From contig OZ245768.1 in the NCBI GenBank assembly GCA_965227835.1, positions 1,020,001-1,052,000 of the forward strand: DNA of 32,000 bases, read 5' to 3'. The DNA comes from Candidatus Saccharimonadota bacterium. GTDB lineage: Bacteria > Patescibacteriota > Gracilibacteria > BD1-5 > UBA6164. The position numbers were made by a program, and so were the translations under genes. Shown piece after piece: positions 1 to 23,896 of the stretch (its first letter is position 1; each line of letters opens with the position of its first letter). Below the pieces are notes generated by a model. It was not told the DNA's origin and searched no databases. It worked only from the letters and a program-made list of their open reading frames with translations.

Positions 1-9
1 TTATAAAAA

Positions 10-1320
10 ATGCATAAAAAATTAAATGCTTTTACATTTGTGGAGTTGATGATAGTTATAATAATTTTAACTACAATATCAATGATATGATTTTCATCCT
101 ATACTTCTCACCTATCTTGAGTCAGAGATACAAATAGAATTTCACAACTAAGAGCTATCTCTGAATCTTTAAAAATATATTCTGTTTTCAACAGACTACC
201 TTACCCAGATGAAAGAGTAAGCATAAAAAATGATACAGATTATATAGCATATCAAGGTTATTTATGAGAAGAATCAATAACTCAAATAAAATATAGCTGA
301 GATTGAGTGGATCCCGAAAATTGAACTCCATTTTCATATTACTTAGATTCAAATAGGAAAAATTTTCAGCTTATGAGTTTTTTAGAAAACAATAAAGATA
401 AAATTACTTATAAGGAAACAGTTTCAAAGACCAATGCGATTGATTATGATTCAATTTATCCTTATGTAGATTGAAAAGATTTATGAATAATGACATGAAC
501 TTGAGATGATTTAAATAAACCAATTCAAGAACTATGAATAGATGAAATTGATATTTCTTCTGTTTCAACCCCTTATGTATCTTATATAAATAACGACCTT
601 AAATTGGTTTGAAACTCAGAAGTTTTATATGTATTAGAATGAATAAAAGATGCTTGAGGTATATGAGCCAACTGTAAAGAACTCATAGATTCAAGACCAA
701 GCTTGGAATGAAAAGATTGATATTATCTTATAAAACCCAGATGAGAAAAAGCTTTTATAGTACATTGTAATATGAGTCTTTATGGTTGATGATGGACTAG
801 ATATACTGAATATAGCTCATCTATGTACTATGTAAATGAACTTTGAGATTTAGTAGAAAATTTTGATGAATTATTTTATTCATATAAAAGAAGCTGAATA
901 AATGATAAATATGCTTTTAGATTTAAAAAACTTTGGACTAAACAATGTGGAGATGAACATTGACATAAATCTGATTTAAAACTAGCACTTAGAGATTATG
1001 TTGACCATATAGAAAATGAATCATGGTGATATTGTTGACGGAATAGCACAACTGGAGATGCAAATGATATAGAAATAGAGAAAATAATAAATTTTGAGTT
1101 TAAAAATGATGATTGTGTTACCTGAAACTTAAATAAAACAAGTGGTCGGAATTACTCTTGGTCTAGTGTTACAACATCAGATTGAAAATCTGTGGGAGAT
1201 CATGTACATCGGATTTCTAATCATACTGTACTTTTTTGACCAAGGTGAAACTGATCATCCCGGTGTGCCTGAGCAAATTCATGACCGAGTGCATCTGAAG
1301 TATATATGTATTTGAGATAG
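10..1320 (+). CDS. Type IV pilin-like protein (prepilin N-terminus) with fibrinogen-like C-terminal globular domain
   Basis: ATG at 10, with an in-frame TAA at 4-6 just upstream, and TAG at 1318-1320. The frame is open only if the many in-frame TGA are sense. The N-terminus MHKKLNAFTFVELMIVIIILTTI is a prepilin cleavage/methylation motif plus hydrophobic helix. The C-terminal half contains ANCKELI..DGYYLIKP..AFIVHCNMSLYGGGWTRY, which resembles the start of fibrinogen-related domains. Confidence 0.8.
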
Positions 1321-1360
1321 TTTATAATTATTTTATATGAACCAAACAAAAGTAACAAAA

Positions 1361-1395
1361 AAGAGATAAAGATTGACTTTATCTCTTTTAAAATA
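1361..1395. terminator. Hairpin terminator between convergent genes
   Basis: Stem AAGAGATAAAG (1361-1371) pairs with CTTTATCTCTT (1377-1387), with T-rich or A-rich runs on both sides. It lies between the stop at 1320 (+) and the stop at 1410 (-). Confidence 0.6.
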
Positions 1396-1409
1396 ATTTT
1401 TAAAACTTA

Positions 1410-2588
1410 TTAACTTTTAACTTTTAACTTATTTTCCTTCTCAGTATTTTTAATCTTTTTTAATTTGAAAAACAAAGAAAATATAAAATCTTTTATTTTA
1501 ACAAAAATCAAGAATATATCATATAAAAAAGGTATTTTATAGTTAAGGTTTCAAGCTTTGAGATTTCATATCGCAAAAAATAAAGGAATTAACAAAAATA
1601 ACTGGTATTTATTATCAAAAGAATAAATCAAGGCCAAAACAATAAAAGAAATACTTATTAAAAACCCATTTATTATATGATTTTTTTGTTTTGAATTTAA
1701 GTTAAACAAAGATATAAAATTTATCAAAGGAATATAAACTAAGTATTTATTGAGCTTGAAGTTTTCAAGACTTTTCAAAAATTTTAATTCAACCTGACTT
1801 CTTTTATTCTCCGCATCAGAAAAATTTTTAAAAAGAGATTCAAAATCTCTAAACTCTTTTTTTGAATTAATATAATTATAGAGATATACAAAAGATACCT
1901 TTAAATAGTTTAAAATCTCTCTAGGAAAAGGAAATTTATCAAGTTTTATATTTATAACTTCATTTCTCACAAAAATATTTATAGAACTATAAACCATAAA
2001 TATTATATAAATAAGAAGAAGGAAATTTGCTAAGTTGTTATTTCAAAAAACATATAAAAAAATTATAGTGCCAGTGAAAATAAGGTTAAATTTTGTATTG
2101 TTTTCTATTAATTTATTTTCCTTGTAAGAAGGAAGTATTAAAAAACCTAAAATAGGTATTCTTGAAAATATAAGAGTTACTTTATTTTTCTCATCAAAAC
2201 TTCAGCTTGAATCTATATCTAAAAGGTTTTTATGGTTTTTGTAATCCATAACCTGTGTCAAAATAAAAAATTTACCACAGTAAGCTTTGTACATAGCTAA
2301 TAACATAAGAACAAAAAGACCAAGATAAACTACAATAGCTATTATATCACTTATAGTATATCCCATAATTTCCCCGTAAAATCATAGTCAATAATATGCA
2401 AATATAATTGTATTTATCAAAAATCATATATGAATCATTATAGCTGTTTTTGTATGGGATTTTACAAATTCACTATTTAAAAAACTATTATTTTTACTGA
2501 ATAAAAACAATATATTCACGAATATAAAAAGATAAGCTATAATAGCATTATTTCTTATTTTTTGATTTATTTGTATTTTTTCATCCAT
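1410..2588 (-). CDS. Multi-pass integral membrane protein, unknown function
   Basis: ATG at 2588 and TAA at 1410-1412, 392 aa with TGA = Gly. I checked the frame block by block. There are several long hydrophobic segments, for example IIAYLFIFVNILFLF and DIIAIVVYLGLFVLMLLAMY. The track ORF 1566..1997 is an internal fragment. Confidence 0.75.
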
Positions 2589-2674
2589 ATTTTTGTGTTG
2601 GTTTAAAAATAGTTATTTTTGTTTTTTTATTTTTACTCTATAATAATAACATATTTTAGTTCATTAATCAAAAT

Positions 2675-3265
2675 ATGAAAATAAAAAGTGCTGAATTTCT
2701 AAAATCTGTATTCATAGATGATAATAAAGTCTTTTTTGATGAAAGAAAAGAGGTTGTTTTTGTGTGAAGATCAAATGTATGAAAATCAAGTATCATAAAC
2801 CGTTTATTAAACAAGAAAGATTTGGTAAAAATTTCCAAGAAACCATGAAAGACTAAAACTGCTAATATTTTTTTGGTAAACAAAAAATATTATTTTACAG
2901 ATTTACCATGATACTGATTTGCTAAATTATGAAAAGAAACCTTGGAAAAACTGGATGCTATTAATTCTTGGTATATTTGAGAAAGAAAACAATTTATAAA
3001 AAATATTATACTTCTAGTAGATTCAAAAATAGGATTACAAGAGAAAGATATAGACATGTTTAATTATATTCAAGAGCTAAATATACCTATTATAATACTA
3101 CTTTCTAAAATTGATAGATTAAGTAAATCTGAAATAGAAAAAGCTAAATCTGATACAGAAAAAAAACTTTTTTGACAAAAAGTTTTTGGTGTATCTTCAC
3201 ATAAAAAAATATGAACTGATGAAATTTTAAAAGAGATATCAAGAAGTCTTGAAGTTAGATTTTAG
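2675..3265 (+). CDS. engB: Ribosome-biogenesis GTPase EngB/YsxC (YihA)
   Basis: 196 aa. The P-loop FVGRSNVGKSSIINRL has both glycines encoded by TGA (2765-2767 and 2780-2782). G3 is DLPGYGF, again with TGA = G. LLSKIDRL supplies the NKxD-like G4. Confidence 0.93.
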
Positions 3266-3267
3266 AT

Positions 3268-3288
3268 TACTGATAAAATTTATCAGTA
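3268..3288. terminator. Hairpin between convergent engB and efp
   Basis: TACTGATAA (3268-3276) pairs with TTATCAGTA (3280-3288). There is no clear U-run, so termination activity is uncertain. Confidence 0.4.
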
Positions 3289-3396
3289 TCTTGTCAACAG
3301 AGGGCTTTAGGTCTTTGTAAAAATTAGCCAATTTAAATAAGATATACAATTTAAGCTTTTTATTGAAAGAGTAAATTTAAACTTTCAAACAAAATT

Positions 3397-3954
3397 CTAA
3401 GCCCTAGATTTGTATTCACCCGTTTTCGTATCAATTATCAATTTATCACCTATATTTATAAACAAAGGAACCTGTAATACAAAACCAGTATTCATAGTTG
3501 CTGGTTTTTTCCCTCAAGTAGCTGTGTCTCATTTCTCTCAAGGTGGAGTTTCTATAACTTCAAGAACACAAGTAGCTCATAAACTAACATTTATAGGATT
3601 TCAATTATACTCTTGAAGCAAAACCTTATCTCATTCTTGCATAAACAATTCTGCTCATCACAATACATTTTTATCCAAACTTACTTGCTCATAAGTATTC
3701 ATATTCATAAAATAATAAGTTTGCCCCTCATTGTATAAATAATCATAAGTACTTGTAGTAATATCAGCTGGAGGAAAACTATCTTTATCTGAGAAAGTTT
3801 TTGGAATACTAGCTCAAGTTATTAAATTTTTTGCCTTAATATTTATTATCGATCATCCTCTACCCATTACTTTTTGAGAATAAGTTATAACTTCATAGGG
3901 ATCTCAATCCATTATAAATCTCTTACCCACCTTTAGTTCGTTTCAAGAATACAT
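3397..3954 (-). CDS. efp: Elongation factor P
   Basis: 185 aa: [44 protein letters not shown] ... [51 protein letters not shown]. By my count 12 of 20 Gly codons are TGA. Confidence 0.95.
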
Positions 3955-3989
3955 AATTGAAAGTTATTAAATTTTAAATATTTAATTTT

Positions 3990-4517
3990 TTACCTAAAAA
4001 TACCTCTAATTCAATCACCTATTGAGCTTGGTATACTATTTCTGATAAAAGTAGTAGTTTCCTCTTTTACAACATGAACAATAGTTTTTATAATCTCTTT
4101 TTCAATTGCATCCTGATCAATTCATGTTTCCATACCACCTACCTGCTTATTTATATTATCTCTAATTATTGGCCTTATAGTATTTATTGTTTCATTTAAT
4201 ACTACATTATATATCTCTTTTGAAAGCTTATCTTTATCAATATTCATAGAAGATGACTTTTCAAAATCCCTTTCTATACCTTCTTTAATAAGTGGCTCAA
4301 TATATGAAACAATTTTATCACTTATCTTTTCATACAATATATCTTCAAATTTTTCTTTGTTAAACTGTAAATCTCATCATGAAATATTATTGATAGTAAC
4401 AAAAAAACTTATTATTAAAACTGTAAATACAGATAAAATACATATCAAAAATAGATAAAGTATTTTTGTTTTTTTGTTTATATTATGTAATAGTTTTTCA
4501 ATCCTTTCTTCATTCAT
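3990..4517 (-). CDS. Hypothetical membrane-anchored protein (single N-terminal TM helix)
   Basis: ATG at 4517 with an in-frame TAG two codons upstream, and TAA at 3990-3992, 175 aa. The N-terminus MNEERIEKLLHNINKKTKILYLFLICILSVFTVLIISFFV is followed by a charged, helical-looking domain. The track ORF 4122..4337 is an internal fragment. Confidence 0.65.
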
Positions 4518-4539
4518 ATTCTATGCTTAATTATAAAAA

Positions 4540-6057
4540 CTATTTAGCATATTCTATAACTCTCATCTCTCTTATTAAATTAACCTTAACTTCTCAAGGA
4601 TAAGATAATTCTTCTTGTATATTTTCAGCTATTGCTTTTGCTGTATTTTGAGCATCCAGGTCAGAAATAGTATCTGAGTCCACAAATACTCTAATTTCTT
4701 TACCAGCACTTATAGCATAAGCCTTATTAACACCAGGGAAAGAATTTGCTAAAGCTTCCATTTCTTGAACTCTTTTTATGTATTGCTCTATAGCTTCCCT
4801 TCTTGCTCATGGTCTAACAGATGATATAGCATCTGCTACCTGTACTATTGAAGCTTCTAAAGATATGGAAAACTGCTCTCAATGATGATTTTCTATCATA
4901 TCAATAATTTGAGGTTTCAAACCATATTTACGACATAATTTTCATCATATTTCAGGATGAGTTCATTCTATTTCTTGATCTAATGCCTTACCTATATCAT
5001 GCAACAATCCTCATATTTTTACTATTTTTGGATCAGCTCATAAATCTTTGGCTAAATTCTCTGCTATAATAGCTGTTTCTTTAGAGTGCTTTAATATGTT
5101 TTGTCCATAGCTAGTTCTAAATCTAAGTTTACCTATTATAGGAATTATTTCATCAGGTATATTTTCTATATTAAGCTCATCTAATATTTTATTTCACAAC
5201 TCTTTCAATAAAAGTTCAGCATCTTGCATAGTGCTAGCTACTATTTCCTCAATCCTAGCAGGTTGAATTCTACCATCTTCAATAAGTTTTTCCAAAGACT
5301 TTTTTGCTATATACCTCTTGTACAAATCAAATGCAGAAATAAAAACGGTATCTGGTGTATCATCAATTATAAGAGATACTCAAGTTTCTTTTTCAAATGT
5401 AGTTATATTTCTACCTTCTTTTCAAATTATCTTACCTTTTATATCATCACTAGGTATTTTAATAACTGTAGTAGTAACTTCACTTGTAACATCAGAAGCA
5501 TATTGTTGTATAGACTTAAGTATAATTTCCCTTGCTTCTTCTTTTTTATTTTCTTCAAGCTTCTTTTTATATTTTTTTATAATTTCAATTCCATCATTTT
5601 GATATTTTTCTTCTATTTGTTTTAAGAAAAGATCCCTTGCTTCCTCTTCACTAAGTTTTGATAATTCAGATAATTTTCATTCAAGCTCTATTTCTTTGTT
5701 TTTTAAATTATCTATCTCTATTTTTAAATTTTCTTCTCAAATAGATAACTCTTCTCTTTTTTTATCAATTATATCTAGTTTTTCTTCTATTTTCTCTTCT
5801 CTTTCAAGTATTCTTTCTTCTATTTTTTCAGATTTTCTGACAATAGAGTCTGCTTGTTTTCTAGCATCCGTTAGAATTTGACTAGATTGCTTCCTAGCAT
5901 CGGTTAAAATTTGATTGGATTCTTTTTTAGAATTTTCCAACATATCATCTCATGCTTTTCTTTTTTGCTTAATTTTTGAGTTTTCATATAAAAAGAAAAA
6001 TACTGATGAAATAGCTACTCAAAATATAGCAGAGATGATTAATAATCATATTTGCAT
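4540..6057 (-). CDS. rny: Ribonuclease Y
   Basis: 505 aa, fully translated. It has an N-terminal TM helix ([24 protein letters not shown]), a coiled coil, a KH motif (IKGKIIGKEGRNIT), an HD domain (LLHDIGKAL .. NHHGE) and the C-terminus [20 protein letters not shown]. Confidence 0.95.
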
Positions 6058-6495
6058 AAAAAAATTTGTTATAAATTAAAAAAATTAATTTATAAAAATA
6101 TTCAATTAATTCTATATATTTCTAGTATAAAATAATAGATAAATTACGAAAAATGTATTTGAATTAGTTGTATAAAACTAGTTTTTTGATTTTAGTTTAT
6201 AGACTTTTTTTGTCTTTGTTTAAAACTAGTTTTTATAAGTTTTAAATATTTTATAAATATCTTGTCTCCTTAAGAAAAAGCTATTAATATGTTAATTTTT
6301 AAAGCTTTCCATTAAATGCTTTTATATAAGTTTAAAAAGTTAATTCTAAATTCTAATCCTTTAATTATCAAAATAATTTTTTCTAAAAAAATATTTAACT
6401 TTCAAAAATTTCTAAAGCGATTTTTATATTAATGATTAGACAGAAAAAATCAAAAAAACTTTTATTTTTAAAAAAACAAAAGTTTAAAAAGACAA

Positions 6496-6519
6496 AGAGG
6501 CAGGTTTTAACCTGCCTCT
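6496..6519 (-). terminator. Intrinsic terminator, cassette A
   Basis: AGAGGCAGGT (6496-6505) pairs with ACCTGCCTCT (6510-6519), followed on the minus strand by TTGTCTTTTTAAACTTTTGTTTTTTT. The hairpin is identical to the one at 7054-7077. Confidence 0.8.
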
Positions 6520-6590
6520 CTTATTTAAGGATTATTAGCTCACAATGGCTTCATTATACTTCAACGAAGCTTGACAGCAACAACTTAGAT

Positions 6591-6845
6591 TTATTTCTCC
6601 CTGAAGTTACATTTACGAAAACAAAGAGCTTTCACTTCCGCTTCCAGCTTAAGAATATCCAACTTGTGCTGTTTCAATCTGAGCTGGTTCAGTCTGACAT
6701 GTTTAAGGGCAAGTTCTAGTTTAGCAATTTGACCTTGAACAGACTCCACAGATGTAGAATTTAGTTCATGCAAGTTAGATTCGGAGGCACAAACAGAACC
6801 AATGGATAATAATCCAAAAATAATTGCAATAAACATTTTTCCCAT
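6591..6845 (-). CDS. Small secreted coiled-coil protein (cassette A), TGA-free
   Basis: 84 aa, open in the standard code and ending in TAA. It has a signal-peptide-like N-terminus (MGKMFIAIIFGLLSIGSVCA|SE) and a strong RBS (AAAGGAGTAAGAT-ATG). The N-terminus is homologous to the 7083..7646 product. Confidence 0.7.
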   Translation of the reverse strand: MGKMFIAIIFGLLSIGSVCASESNLHELNSTSVESVQGQIAKLELALKHVRLNQLRLKQHKLDILKLEAEVKALCFRKCNFREK

Positions 6846-6989
6846 ATCTTACTCCTTTATAAAAATTGAATGGAAAATATAAAAACTTCATTCTATGCAA
6901 AACAAAACTTGTAATACAAAGAAGAAAACAACTTAGTTTTTGAATATAATTTAAATTTGAAAACTTAAATAATTCTAAAACTTGTTCGC

Positions 6990-7017
6990 ATTATAAACAT
7001 AAAAAATATTTTGTCAA
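6990..7017 (-). promoter_or_regulatory. Sigma70-like promoter of cassette A
   Basis: On the minus strand, TTGACA (7017-7012), a 16-nt spacer, then TATAAT (6995-6990). This predicts a 5'UTR of about 135 nt. Confidence 0.65.
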
Positions 7018-7053
7018 AAAATTTTTTAGATTTTTGAGTTTTTAAAAAGATAA

Positions 7054-7077
7054 AGAGGCAGGTTTTAACCTGCCTCT
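7054..7077 (-). terminator. Intrinsic terminator, cassette B
   Basis: Same hairpin, AGAGGCAGGT-TTTA-ACCTGCCTCT, placed 5 nt after the stop at 7083-7085. A T-rich tract follows on the minus strand. Confidence 0.8.
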
Positions 7078-7082
7078 TTTGC

Positions 7083-7646
7083 TTAAGGATGATTAGCCTT
7101 CAATTCGTCCAAAGATAAACATTTAATCTTAACAGCAATTACTTGTTCTCTCCCTTTTCGAGTATAATTCCTAACTTCCAAAATTTCGCATATATCTTCT
7201 TTATTTATGTAATCTTCACCTGATTTGTTATCGGCTAAAAAATCCCAATATGAAGAATAAATATTCACCTTATAATCTGATTTACTGATTGGTGAATATT
7301 GAACTATATCTCCTTTAAACGGGTAAACACCAAGCTTATACCTATATGGATAAATAGAAGTATTATGATATACATTTGAATATAAATCAATATTATCAAT
7401 GCTAGAAGATTCTTTTAACATTTTAAAATATGTACTATCTTCTATCCAAAACATTGCTCTATCAACACCTACACTTGCTGTAAAACTTCTCGAGGCATAC
7501 TCTACCCAAAAGCCCCCAGAATTATCTTCTTCAAAATTTGATTGAAAAGATTCATCCGCAGCATTTGAATAAAATGAATTGATTTCAAAAGCATGAACAG
7601 AATTAATGTATAATAATCCAAAAAGTAACATAAATATTTTTCCCAT
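7083..7646 (-). CDS. Secreted protein (cassette B), TGA-free
   Basis: 187 aa, open in the standard code and ending in TAA. The signal peptide is MGKIFMLLFGLLYINSVHA|FE. All 9 Gly codons are GGN and none is TGA. The RBS AAAGGAGTAAGAT-ATG is identical to cassette A. Confidence 0.75.
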   Translation of the reverse strand: MGKIFMLLFGLLYINSVHAFEINSFYSNAADESFQSNFEEDNSGGFWVEYASRSFTASVGVDRAMFWIEDSTYFKMLKESSSIDNIDLYSNVYHNTSIYPYRYKLGVYPFKGDIVQYSPISKSDYKVNIYSSYWDFLADNKSGEDYINKEDICEILEVRNYTRKGREQVIAVKIKCLSLDELKANHP

Positions 7647-7788
7647 ATCTTACTCCTTTATAAAAATTGAATGGAAAATATAAAAACTTCATTCTATGCA
7701 AAACAAAACTTGTAATACAAAGAAGAAAACACCTTAGTTTTTGAATATAATTTAAATTTAAAAACTTAAATATTCTAAAACTTTTTAC

Positions 7789-7816
7789 ATTATATATATA
7801 AAAAATATTTTGTCAA
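7789..7816 (-). promoter_or_regulatory. Sigma70-like promoter of cassette B
   Basis: On the minus strand, TTGACA (7816-7811), a 16-nt spacer, then TATAAT (7794-7789). It lies inside the duplicated block of about 195 bp. Confidence 0.65.
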
Positions 7817-7932
7817 AAAATTTATCTCAAAACTCCCGAGTTTTTATGCTTTATAGTTTATTTTTTACCTTTATATAAGTAAAAACAGAGTTTTTATATT
7901 GATTAAATTTTATAAAGATAAAATTAGTTTAA

Positions 7933-9136
7933 GGGTCTGTTGCGTTTTGATTTTAAAAAGAGTTTTAATTAAGAAAAGTACTAAATAGATGAAAGATTTA
8001 TAAAATTCATCTATTTTTTGTTAAATTATAGCCATTTTTATATATAATTTAGGATTTTAGACAAAATCCACCTAAGGAAACTAATCTAAGCTATTGGGAT
8101 TTCCTCTAATACAACCAATCTTTTGAGATTAAAAGATATAGCTTCCATAAATGCAGTAAACTGGTTTTTTACTACAGATTTATATCTCACTCTATGATTC
8201 ATTTTTGAAAATACTCTCTCATAAGGAGATCTAAGTTTAGAATAAAATCTATCTTTATCCTTATCCTTCTCTTTCATATTATTCTTCTTTATTGCACATA
8301 AATGTAATCACTTCTTTTTTGATGATAATATAGCTGGTCAAATACAATATCACTTATCAGCATATACTGCTCATGAATTTGGTAATACATGTTTCATTCA
8401 CTTTGCATCTGTTACATTAGCTTGAGTTATAGCTATCTTGTTTATCATTCAAGATTGCATATCAACACTAGCGTGTTTTTTATATCCATACCAAAATTTA
8501 TTTTTTCACTTAGATCAAATTTTAGCTTCCTTATCATTAGCAACTTTTGGAAGAGTTTCATTATTCATTTTTTCATATCATTCTTTTATTCATTTATCTC
8601 TTTCTTCCCATAAATTAGCTTTAGTAACTAAATGAGAAGCATCTACAAATGTAAACACTTCACTCATATACCCCTTATTTGATAATTGATTTTTTAAATC
8701 TTCAAATATCTTTGATAGTTCATTTGTTCATATCTTTTTTCTTGCTCTTGAGAATATACTATAATCTGGAGTTTTATCTGTTAATTTAAATCAGCAAAAC
8801 CATTTACCAGCTAAATTTTCTGCAAGATATTTCTCTAACTCTCTATCTGATAGATCTTCCATAAACTGGATTAGTAAACATAGAAATAATTTTTTTACTC
8901 AATATCATACATGAGTTTTTCATAGATCTATATTTTTTAGTATTTTATTTACTCAATCAAAGTTCCACAATTTCTTAAATTTACGATATTGATGATTTTC
9001 TGGAATTAGCTCGTTTAGGATAACAAAACTTATTTGATTTGATTCTCACATAGGTATTTTCTTAGAATATAATTACTATCTAATTATATCTCTTTTTTCT
9101 CTTTTTAATAGCTAAAATCTAATTTGCAACAGACCC
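7933..9136 (-). mobile_element. IS5-family insertion sequence (1204 bp), intact
   Basis: The terminal inverted repeats are GGGTCTGTTGC (7933-7943) and GCAACAGACCC (9126-9136). A direct TTTAA duplication flanks the element (7928-7932 and 9137-9141). It encodes one DDE transposase. Confidence 0.85.
8086..9051 (-). CDS. IS5-family DDE transposase (DUF772 N-terminal domain plus DDE_Tnp_1-like domain)
   Basis: 321 aa, checked block by block, with more than 20 in-frame TGA = Gly. The motifs are LFLCLLIQFMEDLSDRELEKYLAENLAGKWFCGFKL..PDYSIFSRARKKIG, then D (FVDASHL), D (VYADKGY) and E (RSPYERVFSKMN). The track ORF 8086..8277 is its C-terminus. Confidence 0.88.
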
Positions 9137-9285
9137 TTTAAATAAGTCATTTATAAAACACAAAAGATAAAACACTAAAAATAGTTCAATATCTTCTTAT
9201 TTAAAGTAAAAGATAAGAATACTTTTTATAAAAACTCGGGAGTTTTGAAATTTATGATTTAGTGAAAAAAATAGATTTTAAAATA

Positions 9286-10560
9286 CTATTTAAACTTAGA
9301 ATAATCAAACATTTTAACTTCACTATTAACTTTTCTTATAAGATCAAGTATTACTGAAACTATGATAATTAGTCATGCACCACTTATAATAAAATTTATG
9401 GTCTCTCATCATCTTACCAAAGAAACAATATATGGTAAAACAGCTATCAATGCCAAAAAGCTACCTCAAAAAAGATTTAGATGATTTGAAACTTTATAAA
9501 GATAATTTGCCGTATCATTACCTGGTCTAATTCCAGGAATATAACCTCATCTTTTTTGAATATTTTCAGCAACTTGTTCTGTATTAAATGTTATGGAAAC
9601 ATAGAAAAATGAAAATGCTACAACAAGTACAAAATAGAAAAATACAAGAGACCAAGTAGGATTATTCATATCCAAATAAGTATTTAGAAAATTAGCAACA
9701 CTTTGAGCATTAGGGGAAGAAGAATTTGCTAAAAGCTGTCAAATTATAGAAGGAAATGTAACCAATGAAACAGCAAATATTATAGGTATCATTCAAGCTT
9801 GGTTTACTCTTATAGGAAAATAAGATTTTTCCTCTCTACCTGTTCTAGTATAAATAACAGGAATTCTCCTATTTCACTCTGTAAATTTGATTATAACATA
9901 TATTATAATTAAAGTAGCTATAAATATTCAGATAAAAAGAGGGTAGTCTCCTCTGTTTACATAATCCATAAGTATTCAAGGTGTAGCAGCTAAAACTCAG
10001 GCTGTTATTATTATTGAAATACCATTTCAAATACCATATTCTGTCATAGTCTCTCAAAGCCACATCAAAAACATAGTTCAAGCTGAAATTATAATCATAG
10101 CAGATAATATTACTGAAAAATCAGAGGTGTCAATTATAGGTTGTCCAGCTAAACTATTCATAAGAACTATCATTCAGTAAGATTGAGCAAAAGCTAAAGG
10201 TAAAGTTAACCTTCTAGTCCATTTAGTTATAATTCTTTGTCATTGTTCTCATTGTTTTTGTAATTCTCCTATTTTAGGAACTATTACTCAAAGAAGTTGT
10301 AAAATAATAACAGCATTAATATAGGGAGATAATCACATAAGAATAACGGAAAAATTTGTTAATCATCCTCACATCAAAGCTGAAAAAAAGCTAAGTCAAG
10401 AGTTTTCTCATCCTTCAAATATAGAAGCAAGTTGGCTAGTATCAGCTCAAGGAACAGGTATAACAGACAAAATTTTATAAACTAATATCAAAAGTAATGT
10501 AGCTATAATCTTTTTTCTAATATGAGCTATTTCAAAAACAGATTTCAAACTTTCTATCAT
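9286..10560 (-). CDS. secY: Preprotein translocase subunit SecY
   Basis: 424 aa: MIESLKSVFEIAHIRKKIIATLLLILVYKILSVIPVPG ... GIGNGISIIITAG ... KRGGYIPGIRPGNDTANYL ... ISGAGLIIIVSVILDL. Confidence 0.95.
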
Positions 10561-10749
10561 TTTAAATTTTTATTAAATTAATTTTAAAGTATTTTTCTTT
10601 AATAGTTTTATGTATATTTCCTAAGTAAAGGCTGAAGAATTCTTTAATTCCTATAAAATAATAAATTTTTTACATTATTATACTTTTTTATAATACTTAT
10701 TTTATTCTATCACATAATCTATTCCTTCTTATTATATTCTTGTTCTATT

Positions 10750-10870
10750 CCCTCTCCTCCAAAGGAGAGGGTTAGGGTGAGGTCTTATCCAGAGAGGGTG
10801 AGGTTCTTACCCAGAGAGAGTGAGGTCTTGCCGAAGAAGGTTAGATTAATTTGAGCTAAGGTAAGATCTG
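10750..10870. repeat. GC-rich hairpin plus about 3 tandem 22-nt repeats in the rplO-secY spacer
   Basis: The hairpin is CCCTCTCC-TCCAAA-GGAGAGGG (10750-10771). It is followed by GGGTGAGGTCTTATCCAGAGA, GGGTGAGGTTCTTACCCAGAGA and GAGTGAGGTCTTGCCGAAGA. GC content stands out sharply from the surrounding AT-rich DNA. Confidence 0.6.
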
Positions 10871-10980
10871 CTATTATAATAGTGGGATATAAGATTTATT
10901 TCAATAGTATACTAAAAAATTAACATTCTGCAGAAAAAATAATATTTTTTGTTAATTTTCACCAGAAAAATTTTTTACTT

Positions 10981-11015
10981 AGCAAAAATAAAAAACAAGG
11001 CTTATTTTCAAGCCT
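10981..11015 (-). terminator. Intrinsic terminator after rplO
   Basis: On the minus strand, AGGCTT-gaaaat-AAGCCT overlaps the rplO stop and is followed by TGTTTTTTATTTTTGC. Confidence 0.6.
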
Positions 11016-11484
11016 CTAAATCTTCACTATTAATCAATTCTAAATTTCCTCATAAACTCTCAATAGATTTTTTAGCAGAAGCAGATGCTTTATCAACAGT
11101 AATATTTATCTTTTGGCTCAAGCTTCATTTTCATAAAAGCTTTATTTGCAATTTTTTATTGGATACAATTCAATTATTCAAAAGAACTTCTTTATTGATA
11201 TCTAATACTCAATTTTGAGCTAATTTCTCAACATCTGATAAATTAACTATACTAAAATGTTTCTTGAATCTAGAATTAGAAAATCCTTTTAATTTAGGTA
11301 ATCTCCTAAATAAAGGAGTTTGACCTCATTCAAACCAGTCAGGAACACCTCATCCAGATCTAGAATTTTGACCATTATAACCTCTACCACATGTAGTTCA
11401 TTTTCAACTAGCATTTCATCTACCAAGCTTTTTAGAGCTTTTCCTAGAACCCTTGTTTGGTTTTATATTATTTAAAGATATCAT
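11002..11484 (-). CDS. rplO: 50S ribosomal protein L15
   Basis: 160 aa: [64 protein letters not shown]... Confidence 0.95.
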
Positions 11485-11526
11485 AAATTTTAATTAAAAG
11501 TTGTAAAATATATATACTGTAAAAGA

Positions 11527-12009
11527 CTATTTAAAACTCTTAAGTGCTTTTATAGTTGCTCTAGCATTATTTATAAGATTTGAAGATCAATACCTCTTTG
11601 CTAATACATCTTTATATCAAGCAACCATCAAAACTTTTCTAGCAGCACCTCAAGCAATTATTCCAGTACCAACAGAAGCTGGATTTATCATAATTCGAGC
11701 AGCCTTAAACTTAGCTTTTACATCATAGGGAACACTACCTTCTTTAGTAATGTTTACAAGAGTCATATTTTTTTTAGCATCAGAAGTAGCTTTTGCAATA
11801 GCATCAACAACTTCTCAAGATTTACCAATTCCTAGGGCTACTTTACCCTTACCATCTCAAAGAAGCATTACTGCTCTAAATCTAAGCTGTCTACCTCATG
11901 CAGTAACTCTAGTTACCCTATCTATACCTAGAAGTTCTTCCCTAAACTCTTTTTTTTGTTTTAGGTTTTTATCTCATCATCTCTTAAAATTTTTAGAATC
12001 TTGAGCCAT
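11527..12009 (-). CDS. rpsE: 30S ribosomal protein S5
   Basis: 160 aa: ...LLGIDRVTRVTAGGRQLRFRAVMLLGDGKGKVALGIGKSGEVVDAIAKA...GTGIIAGGAARKVL... Confidence 0.95.
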
Positions 12010-12026
12010 ATTTAATATATAAGTAA

Positions 12027-12371
12027 TTAAAATTTTAATCAGTTTTCACGAGCAGATTCAGCCAAAGCTTTAACTCTACCGTGATAAGCAAATCCTCATC
12101 TATCAAAAACTATATTTGTAATATTATTTGATTTAGCTTCACTAGCTATTTTTTCTCATACCTTAGAAGCCATTTGAGTTTTTGTTCAGTCCTTTTTCAT
12201 TTTCAAATCAGAAGCAGAAACTAAAGTTTTTCAACTATCATCGTCAATTATTTGAGCATATATATTGGAGTTACTCCTAAAAACACAAAGTCTAGGTCTA
12301 GATGCACTACCTCTTAGTTTTGATCTAATTCTAGTATGTCTTCTTTGTTTTTTCAATGATTTAGCTAACAT
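12027..12371 (-). CDS. rplR: 50S ribosomal protein L18
   Basis: 114 aa: ...[20 protein letters not shown]...[27 protein letters not shown]. Confidence 0.95.
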
Positions 12372-12408
12372 AGAAATTTAATTTATAAATTAATAAAAAA
12401 CATTTGTA

Positions 12409-12948
12409 TTATTTTCAAGTCTTTCAAGCTTTTCTTCTAATTTGCTCTCATACATATTTTATACCTTTTCATTTATAAGGCTCTGGTTTCTTTTTCGATC
12501 TAATTTTTGAGGCAAACTGTCAAACAAGTTGTTTATCTATACCTGATATATGAAGTATGTTCTTAGCTTTTTCATCTAGCTCAACTTTTAAGTTACTAGG
12601 AAAAGGAACTTCAACTTTATGAGAATATCAAATACTTAGAATCAAACTGCTTCATTGTAGCTCAAATTTATATCAAACACCATTTATTTCAAGTGATTTC
12701 TTATAAGATTGAGTTACTCAAATAACCATATTGTTTATAAAAGCTCTAGTAGTTCACCACATAGCTCCACTTTGATCATTCTTTGGTTTAACTAAAATTT
12801 TATTATCTTGTTTTTCAACCTCCACTTGATCATCTCTATAGATGGAAGAAAGTTCTCAAAGTGGTCATTTAACTATTATATTATTTCATGATATAGTAAC
12901 CTCCACTTTATCTGGAATATCTATTGGTAATTTTCCTATTCTTGACAT
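12409..12948 (-). CDS. rplF: 50S ribosomal protein L6
   Basis: 179 aa: [33 protein letters not shown]...YSHKVEVPFPSNLKVE...PEPYKGKGIKYVGE. Confidence 0.95.
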
Positions 12949-12978
12949 ATTTTTTCGTTAAAAATAAATTTTTTTATA

Positions 12979-13374
12979 TTAAAAAACTTCACAAAGTAAT
13001 TCTCAACCTACATTTAGACTTCTTGCTTCATAACCAGTAATAACTCATTTAGGAGTAGATATTATAAATATTCACTTACCATTTCTTGATTTTTTTATAT
13101 CAGTCGCTGATATATAAATTCTTTGACCTGGTCTACTAATTCTTCTCAAAGTAGGAACATATTTAGTAACTCTAACATCGTTTAAAAATACTTTTATAGT
13201 TTTTTTATTAGATTGATTATCTACTATCTCATAGTTATAAATATACTTATTCTTCTTAAGAACTCTTAATATGTTTGCTTTTATAGAAGAAAAAGGTACA
13301 TCAAAACTTTCTAATCTAGCCATATATGCATTTCTTATTCTAGTCAATAAATCTGCTATTGGATCTATTATCAT
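12979..13374 (-). CDS. rpsH: 30S ribosomal protein S8
   Basis: 131 aa. The track ORF 13072..13374 continues through two TGA codons: ...[36 protein letters not shown]. Both TGA fall on conserved S8 glycines. Confidence 0.96.
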
Positions 13375-13513
13375 AAGTCTTTAAAATTAAATAATTAAAT
13401 TCTTTATTTTTCTAAAAAGTAATAAATTTTTGGGTTTTCATTAAAAAAATTTCATTCTTCTAAAACACCAAGCAATCTTTTTTCAGTTAAATCTCTAAAA
13501 AATGACTTCAAGA

Positions 13514-13738
13514 CTACCAGCTTGATTTTCTTACTCCTGGCAATTCTCAGCTATTTGCTTTTTCTCTAAAACAAATTCTACATATATCAAAAGCTCATAA
13601 ATATCATCTAGTTCTTCAACAAACACTACAAACATTAAAGCTTTTAGTTGCTCTTATAGGTTTTCTTCAATCCCTAATTGCCCTCATAAGCCTTGTTTTC
13701 AATTTATTTGCCTTAGCTATTTTAGATTTTCTAGCCAT
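13514..13738 (-). CDS. rpsN: 30S ribosomal protein S14 (zinc-ribbon type)
   Basis: 74 aa: MARKSKIAKANK...[38 protein letters not shown], with a CxxC...CxxC motif. Confidence 0.9.
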
Positions 13739-13786
13739 TTAAAAAGTGTTAAAAATTAAATATCTTCGTGGAAAATAGTCTCTACA

Positions 13787-14326
13787 TTATTTAGAGAAAG
13801 GAAAACCTAATTCTCTCAAAAGTGTCATTCAATGCTCACTATTTTTAGCTGTAGTTTTAACTGTTACTTGTAATCCGTGTGTTTTTACTACATCTAGTTG
13901 TGGAACTTCTAAAAATATAGTATGCTCTTTTAATCAAAAGTTAAAATTTCATTGTTTATCAAAGCTTTTACTACTAACTCATCTAAAATCTCTAACTCTA
14001 GGAAAAACAATATTTATAAGCTTTTCTAGGAAGTTATACATATTATCTCATCTTAAAGTAACACTAAGTCCAACAGGCATTCAAGCTCTTAGCTTGAAGT
14101 TAGATATTGCTTTTTTTGCATATCTTACTGTAGGAGCTTGACCAGCAATTAAAGATAAATCTTCTTTCAAAGAAGAATAATCCTTACCTCAAGATTTTAT
14201 AAAAGTACCTATACCCATATTCAAAACTATTTTTTCTAGTTTTGGAACTTCCATAATATTTTCTATTTTCAATTCTTCCTTTATTTTAGGAACAATTTCT
14301 TTTTTATATTTTTCTTTAATAGACAT
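13787..14326 (-). CDS. rplE: 50S ribosomal protein L5
   Basis: 179 aa: [19 protein letters not shown]...[47 protein letters not shown]... Confidence 0.95.
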
Positions 14327-14375
14327 TTAGTTATCAATTTAGCAAAAATAAATATTTTTAAAACGAAGCAAAAAC

Positions 14376-14723
14376 CTATTTTATAATGGCACTAATAGCA
14401 TCTTTTTTATCTCCAGTTTTCACAGCAACCTTGGAAAATCTAAATTTCTTTTTCTTACCTTTTTCTTCTACAAACACAAATCATACTCTTGTTGGTTTTG
14501 ATGTAAAAGGGCATATAAGCATTACATTGGAAGCATCAATTGGTTTTTCAAATTTAACAATTTGTCCAGGTGTAGCTCACATTTTTTTTATGTGCCTAGT
14601 AACGATATTAACTCATTTTACAACAATTTTATTTTTAGATTTCAGTACCTTTGTAACTTCAGACTGCTTTTTTTTGTCTTTTCATGAAAGTACCAAAATT
14701 TTATCTCATTTTCTTATTTTCAT
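14376..14723 (-). CDS. rplX: 50S ribosomal protein L24
   Basis: 115 aa: MKIRKGDKILVLSGKDKKKQSEVTKVLKSKNKIVVKGVNIVTRHIKK..., which is KOW-like. Confidence 0.92.
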
Positions 14724-14765
14724 AAATATGTTATCAATTATATATTTAAATTAGACAAAAAATTA

Positions 14766-15134
14766 TTATAGAACTTCAGGAGCTAAACTTACAATTTTTT
14801 GGTATCATTTAGTTCTAAGTTCCCTAGCTACTGGTCAAAATATTCTAGTTCATCTTGGATTTCAAGAGTCATCTATTACTACACAAGCATTGTCATCAAA
14901 TCTCAAATATCATCCATCTTTTCTTCTTATTTCTTTTTTAGTTCTGACAACCACAGCCTTAACAACTTTTTTCTTTTTAACTTGACCACTAGGGTCAGCT
15001 TTTTTTACAGCACACACTATTAAATCCCCTATTGAAGCATATCTTCTGTGTGATCATCATAAAACTTTAATACACAAAACTTCTTTTGCTCCAGAATTGT
15101 CAGCAACTCATAAAATAGATTCAGCTTGTATCAT
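14766..15134 (-). CDS. rplN: 50S ribosomal protein L14
   Basis: 122 aa: [46 protein letters not shown]...[20 protein letters not shown]... Confidence 0.96.
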
Positions 15135-15161
15135 AAAAACTTAGATTTTATTAAATTAAAT

Positions 15162-15392
15162 TTATTTTTGTTCTGTAACAAGAACCCATCTTTTCAATTT
15201 AGACAATGGTCTTGATTCTTTAATAGTAACATTATCTCAAATCTTTGCAGAATTATTCTCATCATGAGCATAAAACTTTTTTGTTACTTTATATCTTTTT
15301 TTATATTTAGGGTCGCTTTTATATGTATCAACCGAAACCACAATTGTCTTATCTGCTTTATCACTAACGACACTACCTTTAATAGTTCTCAT
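15162..15392 (-). CDS. rpsQ: 30S ribosomal protein S17
   Basis: 76 aa: [69 protein letters not shown]. Confidence 0.95.
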
Positions 15393-15471
15393 ATTTTAAA
15401 AAATTATTCATTTAGTAAGATTTATAAGGAAGAATTCCCAATATTTATAAAACTTTAAGAAAACTTCAAAA

Positions 15472-15687
15472 TTAGCCAATATTATAATTATTTTCTACAG
15501 CTACAGTTTTCATAAGAGCTATATATCTCCTAAGATATCTTAAAAGATGTGTTTGCTTTAATTCTCCCAAACTCTTTTTCATACGAAGTTCATAGAGTTT
15601 CTTTGAATTTAGAGTAATTTCATCTTTCAAAGATTTTTGATCTAGTTTTCTCAAATCATCAATTTTTTTTAATTTTAATCCTTTCAT
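15472..15687 (-). CDS. rpmC: 50S ribosomal protein L29
   Basis: 71 aa, the same as the track ORF, ending in TAA. The call rests on its position between rplP and rpsQ and on the L29-like sequence LRKLDQKSLKDEITLNSKKLYELRMKKSLGELKQTHLLR. Confidence 0.9.
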   Translation of the reverse strand: MKGLKLKKIDDLRKLDQKSLKDEITLNSKKLYELRMKKSLGELKQTHLLRYLRRYIALMKTVAVENNYNIG

Positions 15688-15694
15688 AATTTAA

Positions 15695-16099
15695 TTATTG
15701 AGCTAATATTTTAGTTTTAACAGGGAGTTTATAAGAAGCAAGTTTAAAAGCTTCCTTTGCAACTTCTGGAGATACTCAAGTTATTTCAAACATAACTCTT
15801 CCAGGTTTTACAGGAGCTCTATAACATTCAAGCGATCATTTACCTCAACCCATTGGTACTTCTAATGGTTTGGTTGTATATATTTTGTCAGGAAAAATTC
15901 TTATCCAAATTTTTCATCACCTTTTTATAAATCTAACCATTGCTCTTCTAGCAGATTCTATTTGCCTAGAAGTTATATACCCTCTAGTAGTTGCTTTGAT
16001 AGCATAATCACCAAAAGCAATATTTGAACCTCTTATAGCTTTTCACTTTAATCTTCACCTAAAGGTTTTTTTGTATTTAGTTTTTTTTGGTTGTAACAT
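15695..16099 (-). CDS. rplP: 50S ribosomal protein L16
   Basis: 134 aa: [36 protein letters not shown]...[23 protein letters not shown]... Confidence 0.96.
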
Positions 16100-16163
16100 T
16101 TTTAATGTAGAAGTTAGTATATAATTTTATATATTTAGTCAAATTTTTGTTTTCACAAAATAA

Positions 16164-16802
16164 TTAAGACTTTTTCTTGTAAATATCACCTTTATATATC
16201 CAAACTTTTAGACCTAGAGTTCAATAAACTGTTTCTGCCCTAGTAGATACATAATCAATATCAGATCTAATGGTTTGCGTGGGGATATTACCCTCTTTAA
16301 AAGTTTCTTTTCTAGCAATTTCAGCTCAATTAAGTCTACCTCAAATTTTAATTTTTATTCACCTAGCTCAAGATTCCATACTTTTAGATATAGATTGTTT
16401 TATAGCTCTTTTATATGACATTCTTTTTTCTATTTGATTTTTTATATCAAATCATACTATCTTAGCATTCAGGCTAGGTTTTTTTATCTCTTTAACATTT
16501 ATTATAACTTTCTTTCAAGTTTTTTTTGTAAGAAGATTTTGTATTCTTTCTAAATTTTCTCAAGATTTACCCATTATAAGAGACGTCTTTATAGTATAAA
16601 CATCAACTTTTATAAAGTCTTGCTCTATTGAAACAAGCACATCTCACATAGGTATTCAAGTTAGTTCTTTTTCTAAGATTTGCCTTAGAGTTAAATCAAA
16701 AGAAAGCTCAGTTTTGTAATCTTTTTTACTAGAAAACCAAGAAGATTTCCATGTTTTAATATATGGTATTCTAAAGGATGTAGGACTTACTTTATGTCAC
16801 AT
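16164..16802 (-). CDS. rpsC: 30S ribosomal protein S3
   Basis: 212 aa: [12 protein letters not shown]...[59 protein letters not shown]. Confidence 0.95.
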
Positions 16803-16838
16803 AGCTTAAATAATAATTTTTAAGTAATAAATTTATAT

Positions 16839-17165: not shown

Positions 17166-17224
17166 TTTTTAGGTTAAATAAGTTTTAAAATTAAGGTTAA
17201 ATATAATAATAACAAAAATATATA

Positions 17225-17491: not shown

Positions 17492-17524
17492 TTTTACTTA
17501 TATTTAAAGATTAAAAATTCAAAT

Positions 17525-18370: not shown

Positions 18371-18428
18371 AAATATTTAAGTAAAATAGTTAAGTTTTTT
18401 ATTATTTTATAATAATTATATTTTTATA

Positions 18429-18722: not shown

Positions 18723-18740
18723 TATCTTTTAGTTAAATTA

Positions 18741-19367: not shown

Positions 19368-19393
19368 AATTTTAACTTTATTATTTTAGAATA

Positions 19394-23273: not shown

Positions 23274-23444
23274 TTAGAAATTATTTTTTATATAAAAACC
23301 AGCCTTGAATTTTCAAGGCTGGTTTACACCACTGATATTGTTATCATTTTGATTCTTCTTAGAAAGTAACACACAAAGAGTTACAGCAAAAAGAATAATA
23401 ACAACTATTGGAAACAATGATGGGGGATCAATTCCAGGAAACAT
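23274..23444 (-). CDS. Mini-protein with one TM helix (43 aa to the first TGA, 56 aa under code 25)
   Basis: The RBS AAAGGAGTAAGTTATT precedes the ATG at 23444. The product is MFPGIDPPSLFPIVVIILFAVTLCVLLSKKNQNDNNISGVNQP. TGA at 23313-23315 sits inside the terminator hairpin, and the next TAA is at 23274-23276. Confidence 0.5.
23285..23324 (-). terminator. Intrinsic terminator after the mini-gene cluster
   Basis: AACCAGCCTTGAA (23297-23309) pairs with TTCAAGGCTGGTT (23312-23324), followed on the minus strand by TTTTTATATAAAAAAT. Confidence 0.7.
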
Positions 23445-23491
23445 AATAACTTACTCCTTTTTTTTAGGGTGTTTTAATTTTCAAAAAATCA

Positions 23492-23575
23492 TTATTTTTT
23501 GAAAAATGATTTTACCCACATAATAGCTATGAAGGCAACAAGAAAGCCAAAGATCAAAAAAAATATAGTTCCCAT
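23492..23575 (-). CDS. Mini-protein, 27 aa, single TM helix
   Basis: The RBS AAAGGAGTATAAAT precedes the ATG at 23575. The product is MGTIFFLIFGFLVAFIAIMWVKSFFKK, ending in TAA at 23492-23494. Confidence 0.5.
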   Translation of the reverse strand: MGTIFFLIFGFLVAFIAIMWVKSFFKK

Positions 23576-23631
23576 ATTTATACTCCTTTAATTGGAAAGA
23601 AAAATGAAATTAAAATGCAAAAATAAAATTT

Positions 23632-23808
23632 TTAAATTTGTATTTCACAGGTATTGTAAAGAGTAATTCCTTTATGTCAATATTTTTTAAGTTTACGCTT
23701 CTTTCGAATCCTTCCATCAAGAAAACAACCTAAAGAATAACCTATTATAGAACCGAAAATAAACACAAACAAGAATATGTAAATTAATTCTTTCAATTCA
23801 TACTCCAT
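23632..23808 (-). CDS. Mini-protein with one TM helix (43 aa to the first TGA, 58 aa under code 25)
   Basis: The RBS AAAGGAGTTCTTTGAAT precedes the ATG at 23808. The product is MEYELKELIYIFLFVFIFGSIIGYSLGCFLDGRIRKKRKLKKY. TGA is at 23677-23679 and the next TAA is at 23632-23634. Confidence 0.5.
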
Positions 23809-23896
23809 ATTCAAAGAACTCCTTTTTAAAAAGAAATGATAAATAAAAAAGTGAAATTTAACTTGTAAATTTCAAGGAGTTTTTAATAAATAATTT

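Follow-up and report, generated by a model that had tools for sequence, protein, structure and literature searches.

Several described systems share features with the locus reported here. Among the variable lipoproteins of Mycoplasma (Vlp, Vsp, and Vsa), paralogs agree in the 5′ region and signal peptide but diverge in the mature part, and rare genes led by a Shine-Dalgarno (SD) sequence occur in genomes otherwise devoid of such sequences, as exemplified by rpsU in Flavobacteria. The locus studied here lies on contig OZ245768.1 of a Candidatus Saccharimonadota bacterium, in a stretch of 32,000 nucleotides (nt) hereafter called the window, and consists of two tandem minus-strand units, 7816..7042 (cassette 2) and 7017..6484 (cassette 1), which carry SD-led genes for proteins of 187 and 84 amino acids (aa), respectively. 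TGA-free phages compatible with genetic code 11, in which TGA stops are backed up, have been predicted to infect Gracilibacteria and Absconditabacteria, and all integrated prophages of these bacteria were found to be dense in TGA (Liu et al. 2023, mBio, PMC10746230). A TGA-free surface-protein repeat with long stem-loop flanks has been found both in a Gracilibacterium and in a Colwellia co-occurring with it (Sieber et al. 2019, mBio, PMC6851277). The two cassette genes, together with three open reading frames (ORFs) at a second locus of the window, form, within a code-25 chromosome, a minor class of small genes for exported or membrane proteins that are SD-led and code-neutral; to our knowledge, such a class is undescribed in the literature searched.

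Each of these precedents matches the cassettes in part. As in the Vlp, Vsp, and Vsa families, the cassettes stand in tandem and are near-identical in promoter, leader, and signal-peptide codons, with unrelated mature regions; unlike those families, they have no lipobox, internal tandem repeats, or phase-variation device (i.e., invertible element, recombinase, or length-variable tract), and only two copies are known, each with its own terminator. Like rpsU in Flavobacteria, they represent a few strong SDs in a near SD-less genome, which implies a distinct translational regime, but the SD-led genes here encode small secreted or membrane proteins, and no autoregulatory logic is evident. In contrast to integron gene cassettes, the units each start from a consensus promoter of their own and end in a simple terminator hairpin, and the window contains no integrase. 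As in the code-11-compatible phages, in-frame TGA is absent, and ORFs end in TAA or TAG, or in TGA with a close backup stop; unlike those phages, the cassettes are chromosomal, with the 187-aa unit syntenic after secY in two strains, and they have no phage hallmark genes, informative PHROG match, or viral relatives, their neighbors being secY, rny, and an insertion sequence (IS) that arrived independently. The repeat shared by Gracilibacterium and Colwellia resembles the cassettes in that it is extracellular and TGA-avoiding, has stem-loop flanks and atypical codons, and raises the same question of exchange; however, it is a PTD tripeptide repeat within one large protein under purifying selection at the protein level (PMC6851277), whereas each cassette comprises an entire small gene together with its expression signals, and the ratio of nonsynonymous to synonymous substitution rates (dN/dS) is at least 1. 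Gene flow across the code boundary and paralogs with conserved 5′ modules are both known phenomena, and the cassettes do not represent a new kind of system.

The host reads TGA as glycine and is a code-25 bacterium of the Gracilibacteria/Absconditabacteria type. In the window, which has a G+C content of about 26%, the total length of ORFs of at least 100 codons rises from 7.8 kb to 38 kb once TGA is read as sense; this reading restores full-length ribosomal proteins, SecY, EF-P, RNase Y, deformylase, and a surface protein whose 1606-codon ORF holds 129 in-frame TGA. In a native reference set of 33 confident genes of the window, TGA accounts for 439/647 glycine codons (68%), with heavy use in the ribosomal-protein genes, and an SD, sought in the 25 nt before each start, is present in 0/33. 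The two cassette genes use TGA for none of their 13 glycine codons (nine in the 187-aa gene and four in the 84-aa gene), and both starts read AAAGGAGTAAGAT-ATG, within a wider start region TAAAGGAGTAAGAT-ATG. A previous description of this DNA, made from the letters and a list of their open reading frames and hereafter called the earlier note, had reported both the missing TGA and the SDs, and both observations hold; among the native genes, only rpmC (71 aa, three glycine codons) likewise lacks TGA, and it too has no SD. The earlier note had also called the absence of TGA very unlikely. It is indeed unusual, but the naive binomial probability of 4e-7 overstates the case, as a duplicated block contains four of the 13 glycine codons and the genes differ in TGA use by more than a binomial allows. 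Because of this overdispersion, a beta-binomial fit was preferred, under which the probability of finding no TGA is 6.5e-4 for nine glycine codons and 1.9e-4 for 11. With many windows and genes scanned, the absence of TGA from the cassette pair alone is suggestive.

The second locus (23298..23830, minus strand), located between def and a VirB4/TraG-like ATPase gene, extends this signature to three further small SD-led ORFs, which marks it as shared by a whole class of genes, not as an accident of one locus. ORF-A (start at 23808, minus strand; AAAAAGGAGTTCTTTGAAT-ATG) runs for 43 codons before a TGA and encodes an acidic N-terminus, a transmembrane (TM) segment, and a basic tail. ORF-B (start at 23575, minus strand; AAAGGAGTATAAAT-ATG) encodes 27 aa beginning with MGTIFFLIFGFL (in full, MGTIFFLIFGFLVAFIAIMWVKSFFKK); it has its own promoter (23680..23653, minus strand; TTGACA-16-TACAAT), and its region from the SD to the N-terminus resembles the cassette counterpart. 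ORF-C (start at 23444, minus strand; AAAAGGAGTAAGTTATT-ATG) also runs for 43 codons before a TGA and encodes a 43-aa TM peptide. All three have hydrophobic N-termini, all eight of their glycine codons up to the first standard-code stop are GGN, and their combined codon usage is atypical (z -3.9). The sole TGA of ORF-A lies inside the TTGACA (-35 box) of the next promoter and that of ORF-C inside a terminator stem (~23325..23298; -22 kcal/mol, z -7.5); in each case, the TGA is positioned where a code-11 stop would fit, and a TAA follows 14-15 codons on. These ORFs may represent small secretion-system or toxin-like membrane peptides. The extended motif AAAGGAGT-N4-9-ATG occurs five times in the window, compared to 0.17 expected, and none of 500 shuffles reached five (maximum, three); the bare motif AGGAG-N5-10-ATG is unenriched (5 versus 3.65 +/- 1.8) and was discarded as evidence for SDs. 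Sense TGA is absent from 5/5 SD-led ORFs as compared to 1/33 SD-less genes (Fisher p = 1.2e-5), although the five count as four independent SD units because the two cassette SDs represent one duplicated event. With no sense TGA, the class reads the same under codes 11 and 25.

We favor, with a probability of roughly 0.5, a reading in which the cassettes are self-contained units for export that stem from a standard-code gene pool and underwent duplication and recombination afterward. The class would be derived from, or exchanged with, a standard-code, SD-using pool of neighboring or host bacteria or their mobile elements. This reading rests on the SDs, the lack of sense TGA, and the stop-like TGA with backup TAA across the five ORFs, as well as on atypical composition in four of the five, strain-variable presence, and placement in variable regions; a class of native coding sequence is less likely. 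The main rival, which we regard as possible but rather unlikely, is that these secreted proteins belong to a fast-evolving native family specific to the lineage, in which SD, promoter, and terminator are the signals of a few highly expressed small genes, and TGA is absent by selection (e.g., if the TGA-decoding tRNA-Gly is limiting) or partly by chance. A probability of 6.5e-4 for the 187-aa gene is indeed non-negligible over about 1,300 genes (an estimate) and many windows. For the class, however, chance is excluded by 19 glycine codons without TGA in five SD-led ORFs and by the strict association of an SD with the lack of TGA; heavy TGA use by ribosomal-protein genes argues that TGA is no poor codon for high expression, and no known mechanism ties SD-led initiation to TGA avoidance.

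Composition bears on the same rivalry and is divided between the two genes. The 187-aa gene is native-like in its non-glycine synonymous codons (z -0.8 to -1.3) and in G+C at third codon positions (GC3 of 0.19, compared to a native 0.15 +/- 0.03); the lack of TGA in this gene is thus a lone anomaly, with no wider foreign codon signature behind it. This supports a native family, as do the very AT-rich leader and the synteny of the gene after secY in two strains. The payload of cassette 1, on the other hand, has 39-41% G+C, a GC3 of 0.33, and a codon-usage z of -5.6, and it uses TTA for 0/12 leucine codons (native, 40%); this payload and ORFs A-C are compositionally atypical, which counts against a native family. 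The proposal that the codon signature differs from that of the host therefore stands for the TGA and SD pattern and for payload 1, but not for the non-glycine codon usage of the 187-aa gene.

Both units follow one plan, in the arrangement that had been proposed of shared promoter, 5′ untranslated region, signal-peptide, and terminator modules, all on the minus strand. The cassette 2 promoter (7789..7816) has a TTGACA box at 7816..7811, a 16-nt spacer, and a TATAAT box at 7794..7789, matching the consensus at 12/12 positions; the cassette 1 promoter (6990..7017; TTGACA-16-TATAAT) also matches at 12/12, and the two are the only 12/12 matches to the sigma-70 consensus in positions 1-20000. Taking the transcription start from the -10 box, the cassette 2 leader (7647..7782) comprises about 135 nt of 15-20% G+C with the SD AAGGAG at 7658..7653, 6-7 nt before the ATG; the cassette 1 leader occupies 6846..6983, with AAGGAG at 6857..6852. 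The 187-aa coding sequence (7083..7646) ends in TAA, and an intrinsic terminator (7042..7079; AAAGAGGCAGG-TTAA-AACCTGCCTCTTT plus a T-rich tail) begins 4 nt past this stop. The 84-aa coding sequence (6591..6845) ends in TAA-ATC-TAA; its terminator (6484..6521) has a 24-nt core identical to that of cassette 2. The two hairpins are the best terminator-like sites in positions 1-20000, and zero chance matches to the hairpin are expected. Each unit would thus be monocistronic, serving the export of one small protein through a consensus sigma-70-type promoter, an AT-rich leader, an SD, a Sec signal peptide, a payload, and a TAA stop, with a strong intrinsic terminator that may insulate it.

A repeat search of the two units recovered three duplicated modules and nothing besides: a promoter/leader block of 191 nt with a gapped identity of 96.4% (6829-7019 versus 7630-7820); a 41-nt stretch of codons for the signal peptide (6780-6820 versus 7584-7624); and 64 nt comprising the last codons and the terminator (6483-6546 versus 7041-7104). 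The first of these corresponds to the near-identical block of about 195 bp that the earlier note had described, and the central coding parts are unalignable, as it had also observed; the two payloads correspond to a predicted beta-rich domain of 166 aa and a long helix of 63 aa. Its statement that both genes end in the hairpin does not hold, as the stop of the 84-aa gene lies 70 nt upstream of it. The gap holds an untranslated, in-frame remnant of the other gene's C-terminus (6525..6584, minus strand), which reads VVAVKLRGSIMKPLGANNP followed by a stop, resembles the 187-aa C-terminus (VIAVKIKCLSLDELKANHP, also followed by a stop), and contains two TGA. Remnant and C-terminus are identical at 8/19 residues without gaps (E 0.026 in BLASTP, from a single comparison), their DNA is about 63% identical without gaps (counted by eye), and both lie at the same distance from their terminators. 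With ends that are 96-100% identical, a tail that is about 63% identical, and a payload that is unalignable, unit 1 is a duplicated and mosaic copy. In a plausible sequence of events, the ancestral unit would have been the 187-aa gene directly after secY, and tandem duplication in this strain would have been followed by replacement of the payload of copy 1 by an unrelated helix-coding segment of about 40% G+C, the old C-terminal codons persisting as the diverged, untranslated remnant.

Several candidate elements in and around the leaders were considered and set aside. Folding of the leaders is weak (z -2.0 to -2.3); a stem pairing UUUUCCAU with AUGGGAAAA is non-significant and does not recur in ORF-B. 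No Rfam match was obtained for the leader at gathering or permissive thresholds, which argues against a known RNA or riboswitch. A hairpin occluding the start codon, as a potential regulator, is weak (-7.7 kcal/mol, z -1.4) and unconserved in ORF-B, and the ATG of a potential conserved upstream ORF is lost in the sister strain described below. A decayed third module in the 6076-6495 spacer (AAGGAGACAAGATAT) was likewise rejected, with a local alignment score of 24 compared to 22.9 +/- 3.2 for shuffles.

A similar style of expression signals recurs elsewhere in the window. Two further units of about 470 nt each, also arranged in tandem, occur on the minus strand at 20235-21215; upstream, they have in common a block of about 185 nt (an estimated 88% identical) that ends in TTGACT-16-TATAAT. 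Their divergent bodies of about 270 nt are richer in G+C, contain no long ORF, and carry conserved islands (GGATGAAT, AAGTCAAATCT, and a TTTGCACACGRAT hairpin), and the units end in strong terminators (20784-20753 and 20265-20247). No Rfam, tRNA, or tmRNA match was found for these units, which probably represent two paralogous non-coding RNAs. Consensus-like promoters, strong terminators, and conserved ends around a variable middle thus belong to the native repertoire of this genome and are not foreign marks, and the recurrence of this style in other small units adds to the case for a native family.

In a library of 5.8 billion proteins, the 187-aa protein has exactly one relative, a protein of 184 aa that is 86-88% identical and is encoded on contig L001 of a sister strain; in the ribosomal-protein and secY genes, the two strains are about 98% identical at the DNA level and 97-100% at the protein level. 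The sister strain has a single unit directly after secY, with the same promoter (identical to that of cassette 2), leader (96.4% identical to that of cassette 2, the same value as between the two cassettes), SD, and terminator; all three copies have a 16-nt promoter spacer, and the 84-aa unit is missing from the sister strain. The remaining 12 genes on L001, among them transposases and a restriction-modification system, all use TGA. Between the strains, the cassette gene shows dN 0.066, dS 0.045, and dN/dS 1.46, with one indel, which is in frame (9 nt), compared to pN (the nonsynonymous proportion) of 0.0036 and pS (the synonymous proportion) of 0.079 for housekeeping genes; at nonsynonymous sites, the gene evolves about 18-fold faster than its neighbors, a rate that fits diversifying or relaxed selection.

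These rates raise the alternative, which we judge improbable, that the units are non-functional relics, i.e., mobile-element leftovers or decaying genes drifting neutrally in an IS-rich region of recently diverged strains. A dN/dS of 1.46 is indistinguishable from 1, and with 33 substitutions the frame would stay open under neutrality with a chance of 0.19; the dead C-terminal remnant behind a double stop in cassette 1, the IS elements around the locus in both strains, and the orphan status of the proteins also agree with decay. Yet an ORF of 187 codons at about 27% G+C is very unlikely without present or recent selection, the only indel between the orthologs preserves the frame, and promoter, SD, start, and terminator are perfectly kept in three copies while the payload changes 18-fold faster than housekeeping genes at nonsynonymous sites, a pattern that is the reverse of uniform decay.

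The cassette locus is an IS-rich variable spot in both strains. In the window, an IS5-family insertion (DDE_Tnp_1) of about 1.43 kb (7826..9250, minus strand; transposase at 9051..8086, with 17 TGA) lies between secY and the cassette 2 promoter, 8 nt upstream of the -35 box; it has terminal inverted repeats of about 24 nt (...CAAAACTCCCGAGTTTTTAT...) and a probable TAA target duplication. We considered the transposase as part of the cassette system and rejected this, as positions 4177-4218 of L001 represent an empty site, with an uninterrupted junction of secY and cassette, showing a later, independent insertion; the transposase is therefore incidental to the cassette. L001 carries a 97.5% identical copy of this transposase elsewhere. 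Beyond its cassette, L001 has, at 4981-7890, an IS481/IS3-like transposase split into two pieces by nested IS200-type (Y1_Tnp) and IS5-type insertions, and a restriction-modification cluster follows at 11586-14389, with two methyltransferases, an ICEA-like nuclease, and a helix-turn-helix protein; all the IS and restriction-modification genes in these two regions use TGA for glycine.

Both products appear to be made for export. Read from the sequence, the two N-termini present a short basic n-region, a hydrophobic core of 12-14 residues, and a small-X-small site. For the 187-aa protein, the predicted signal peptide comprises residues 1-19 (7646..7590; MGK, IFMLLFGLLYINS, and VHA|F), with cleavage at VHA|FE leaving a mature protein of 168 aa; for the 84-aa protein, it comprises residues 1-20 (MGK, MFIAIIFGLLSIGS, and VCA|S), with cleavage at VCA|SE. 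Sec export with cleavage by signal peptidase I would follow for both. A lipobox requires [AGS]-C, so that a Val at -1 breaks the rule; ...NSVHA|FE contains no Cys, ...IGSVC-A has Val at -1, and the Cys of the latter is unconserved in paralog and ortholog. In an AlphaFold2 (AF2) model, the 84-aa product has a helix at residues 3-15 and a long helix at 32-82, with a predicted local distance difference test (pLDDT) score >90 for about 40 residues, and its modeled shape resembles a coiled-coil stalk. The 187-aa product is predicted to be mostly beta, and no fold was assigned because of its AF2 pLDDT of 39; the homology and structure comparisons that had been proposed for it thus yielded an ortholog in the sister strain, but no family. 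The products are probably extracellular or surface proteins, fast-evolving and involved in interaction with other cells.

Neither protein matched Pfam, NCBIfam, PHROGs, PADLOC, or PDB sequences. With HMMER, the 187-aa protein recovered from 1.84 billion representatives, besides the sister-strain ortholog, only a marginal 31-residue likeness to WD40 blades, and the 84-aa protein had no relatives in any library searched. Membership of the 84-aa product in a family like Braun lipoprotein (Lpp) was rejected, since the similarities to YqhH (E 0.1) and YbfN (E 0.12) are below threshold and a lipobox is missing; with Lpp-like proteins it shares only the long-helix shape and a C-terminal Lys. A profile of the N-termini, searched for proteins sharing the signal peptide, returned one unrelated 49-aa protein, a weak negative as the query proteins themselves were missed.

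Scans of genomes, metagenomes, and a viral collection for more copies of the module gave chance matches only. No relatives were found with blastn and tblastn against GenBank phages, with blastn against PLSDB plasmids, or in a protein-pattern scan of IMG/VR; one 20-mer match in IMG/VR (L008) was dismissed as a chance match. In exact-pattern scans, a 23-mer of the SD/start region matched two unrelated Clostridium genes among GTDB genomes, and a 22-mer of the hairpin matched, in JGI metagenomes, four unrelated terminators in contigs of 39-47% G+C. The module copies found are two in the window and one in the sister strain, and an integron integrase is absent from the window, as are a recombinase, attC-like site, or diversity-generating mechanism from the cassettes. 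The idea of a cassette system is thus borne out as regards conserved expression and secretion ends with variable payloads, but not as regards copy number or recombination machinery.

These searches also bear on whether the units are TGA-free by requirement, in order to work on both sides of the code boundary as a shuttling element or upon delivery to a standard-code host. All their signals (sigma-70 promoter, SD, Sec signal peptide, TAA, and intrinsic terminator) are of a universal bacterial type, the sequence is identical in reading under codes 11 and 25, dual-code phages provide a precedent (PMC10746230), and genes for a VirB4/TraG-like ATPase and type IV pilin-like proteins are located in the same window. 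However, no mobility function, att or ori sequence, or repeat boundary surrounds the units; the flanking IS arrived later and independently, the chromosomal site after secY is fixed in two strains, no copy occurs in the standard-code genomes, plasmids, or phages searched, and the products of ORF-A and ORF-C would differ between the two codes. We consider such a requirement very improbable. A broader version, in which the five ORFs represent a dedicated code-neutral, SD-dependent class of genes for small secreted or membrane proteins, kept TGA-free either for function under both codes, as genes shared with or delivered to the standard-code bacteria on which the organism lives, or by a distinct SD-dependent translation regime in a genome that otherwise disregards SDs, also seems distinctly improbable.

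Several observations weigh against an origin of the units in a standard-code pool. No donor was found, a result that also favors a native family: both proteins are orphans in the libraries of 5.8 billion and 1.84 billion proteins, and there was no phage or viral match in DNA or protein, no plasmid match in DNA, and no PHROG or Pfam family. The 187-aa gene is native-like in codon usage and G+C, and the leader is more AT-rich than the genome, as would be expected after a long stay in this genome or with a donor of similarly high A+T content. The presumably native non-coding units at 20.2-21.2 kb are likewise flanked by strong terminators and near-consensus promoters. The remnant in cassette 1 has two in-frame TGA and, had it formerly been translated, would speak for an earlier history under code 25. 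The excess of nonsynonymous change in the 187-aa gene does not differ significantly from neutrality (Fisher p = 0.65), and a decaying gene would also give a ratio of about 1. Finally, we infer transcription, SD-dependent initiation, export, foreign origin, and function of the units from their sequences, and the predicted status of expression and secretion counts on the same side.

Other features of the window concern the host background. No tRNA or Rfam family was detected in the window. The giant repetitive surface protein (24524-29341, minus strand; 1595 aa), with repeats of about 90-100 aa read from the translation (e.g., ...SASDSGGSGLS.KKYRWNNSDCWNG...), uses TGA for 129/155 glycine codons (83%); of the native genes, its gene deviates most in the leave-one-out codon-usage score. 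Prepilin-type N-termini (FTFVELMIV..., FTLVELILA...) are found at 7-1320 (plus strand), 30066-30701 (minus strand), 29452-30072 (minus strand), and 30750-31199 (plus strand), indicating a type IV pilus or pseudopilus cluster; one of these proteins (436 aa) has an unusually large C-terminal domain rich in glycine and TGA. The VirB4/TraG-like P-loop ATPase (21223-23171, minus strand) is apparently split into an N-terminal part (22485-23171) and an ATPase part (21223-22500) that overlap by 16 nt, which may reflect a frameshift, an error in sequencing, or two genuinely separate genes. The gap between rplO and secY (10570-11001, minus strand) is unusually long (about 430 nt) and kept in both strains (2475-2902 of L001); within it, about 2.5 copies of GACCTCACYCTCTCTGGRTAA stand in tandem before a hairpin, CCCTCTCC-TTTGG-AGGAGAGGG, and the gap had no significant Rfam match (the best, whalefall-1, with E 0.018, is below the gathering score).

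Code-25 bacteria are uncultivated or barely cultivated epibionts, and a question of interest is their gene exchange with the standard-code organisms on which they depend. The cassettes offer ready-made promoter, ribosome binding site, signal-peptide, and terminator parts from a code-25 organism and, because they contain no TGA, could be expressed unchanged in Escherichia coli for assays of their secretion and activity. A candidate factor for host interaction is the 187-aa protein, with its fast evolution. In these lineages, reports of TGA-free genes have so far been confined to free phage genomes. If the origin favored here is true, these chromosomal, code-neutral export genes, with standard bacterial expression signals missing from the rest of the genome, would directly attest that genes have crossed the code boundary and entered the chromosome.

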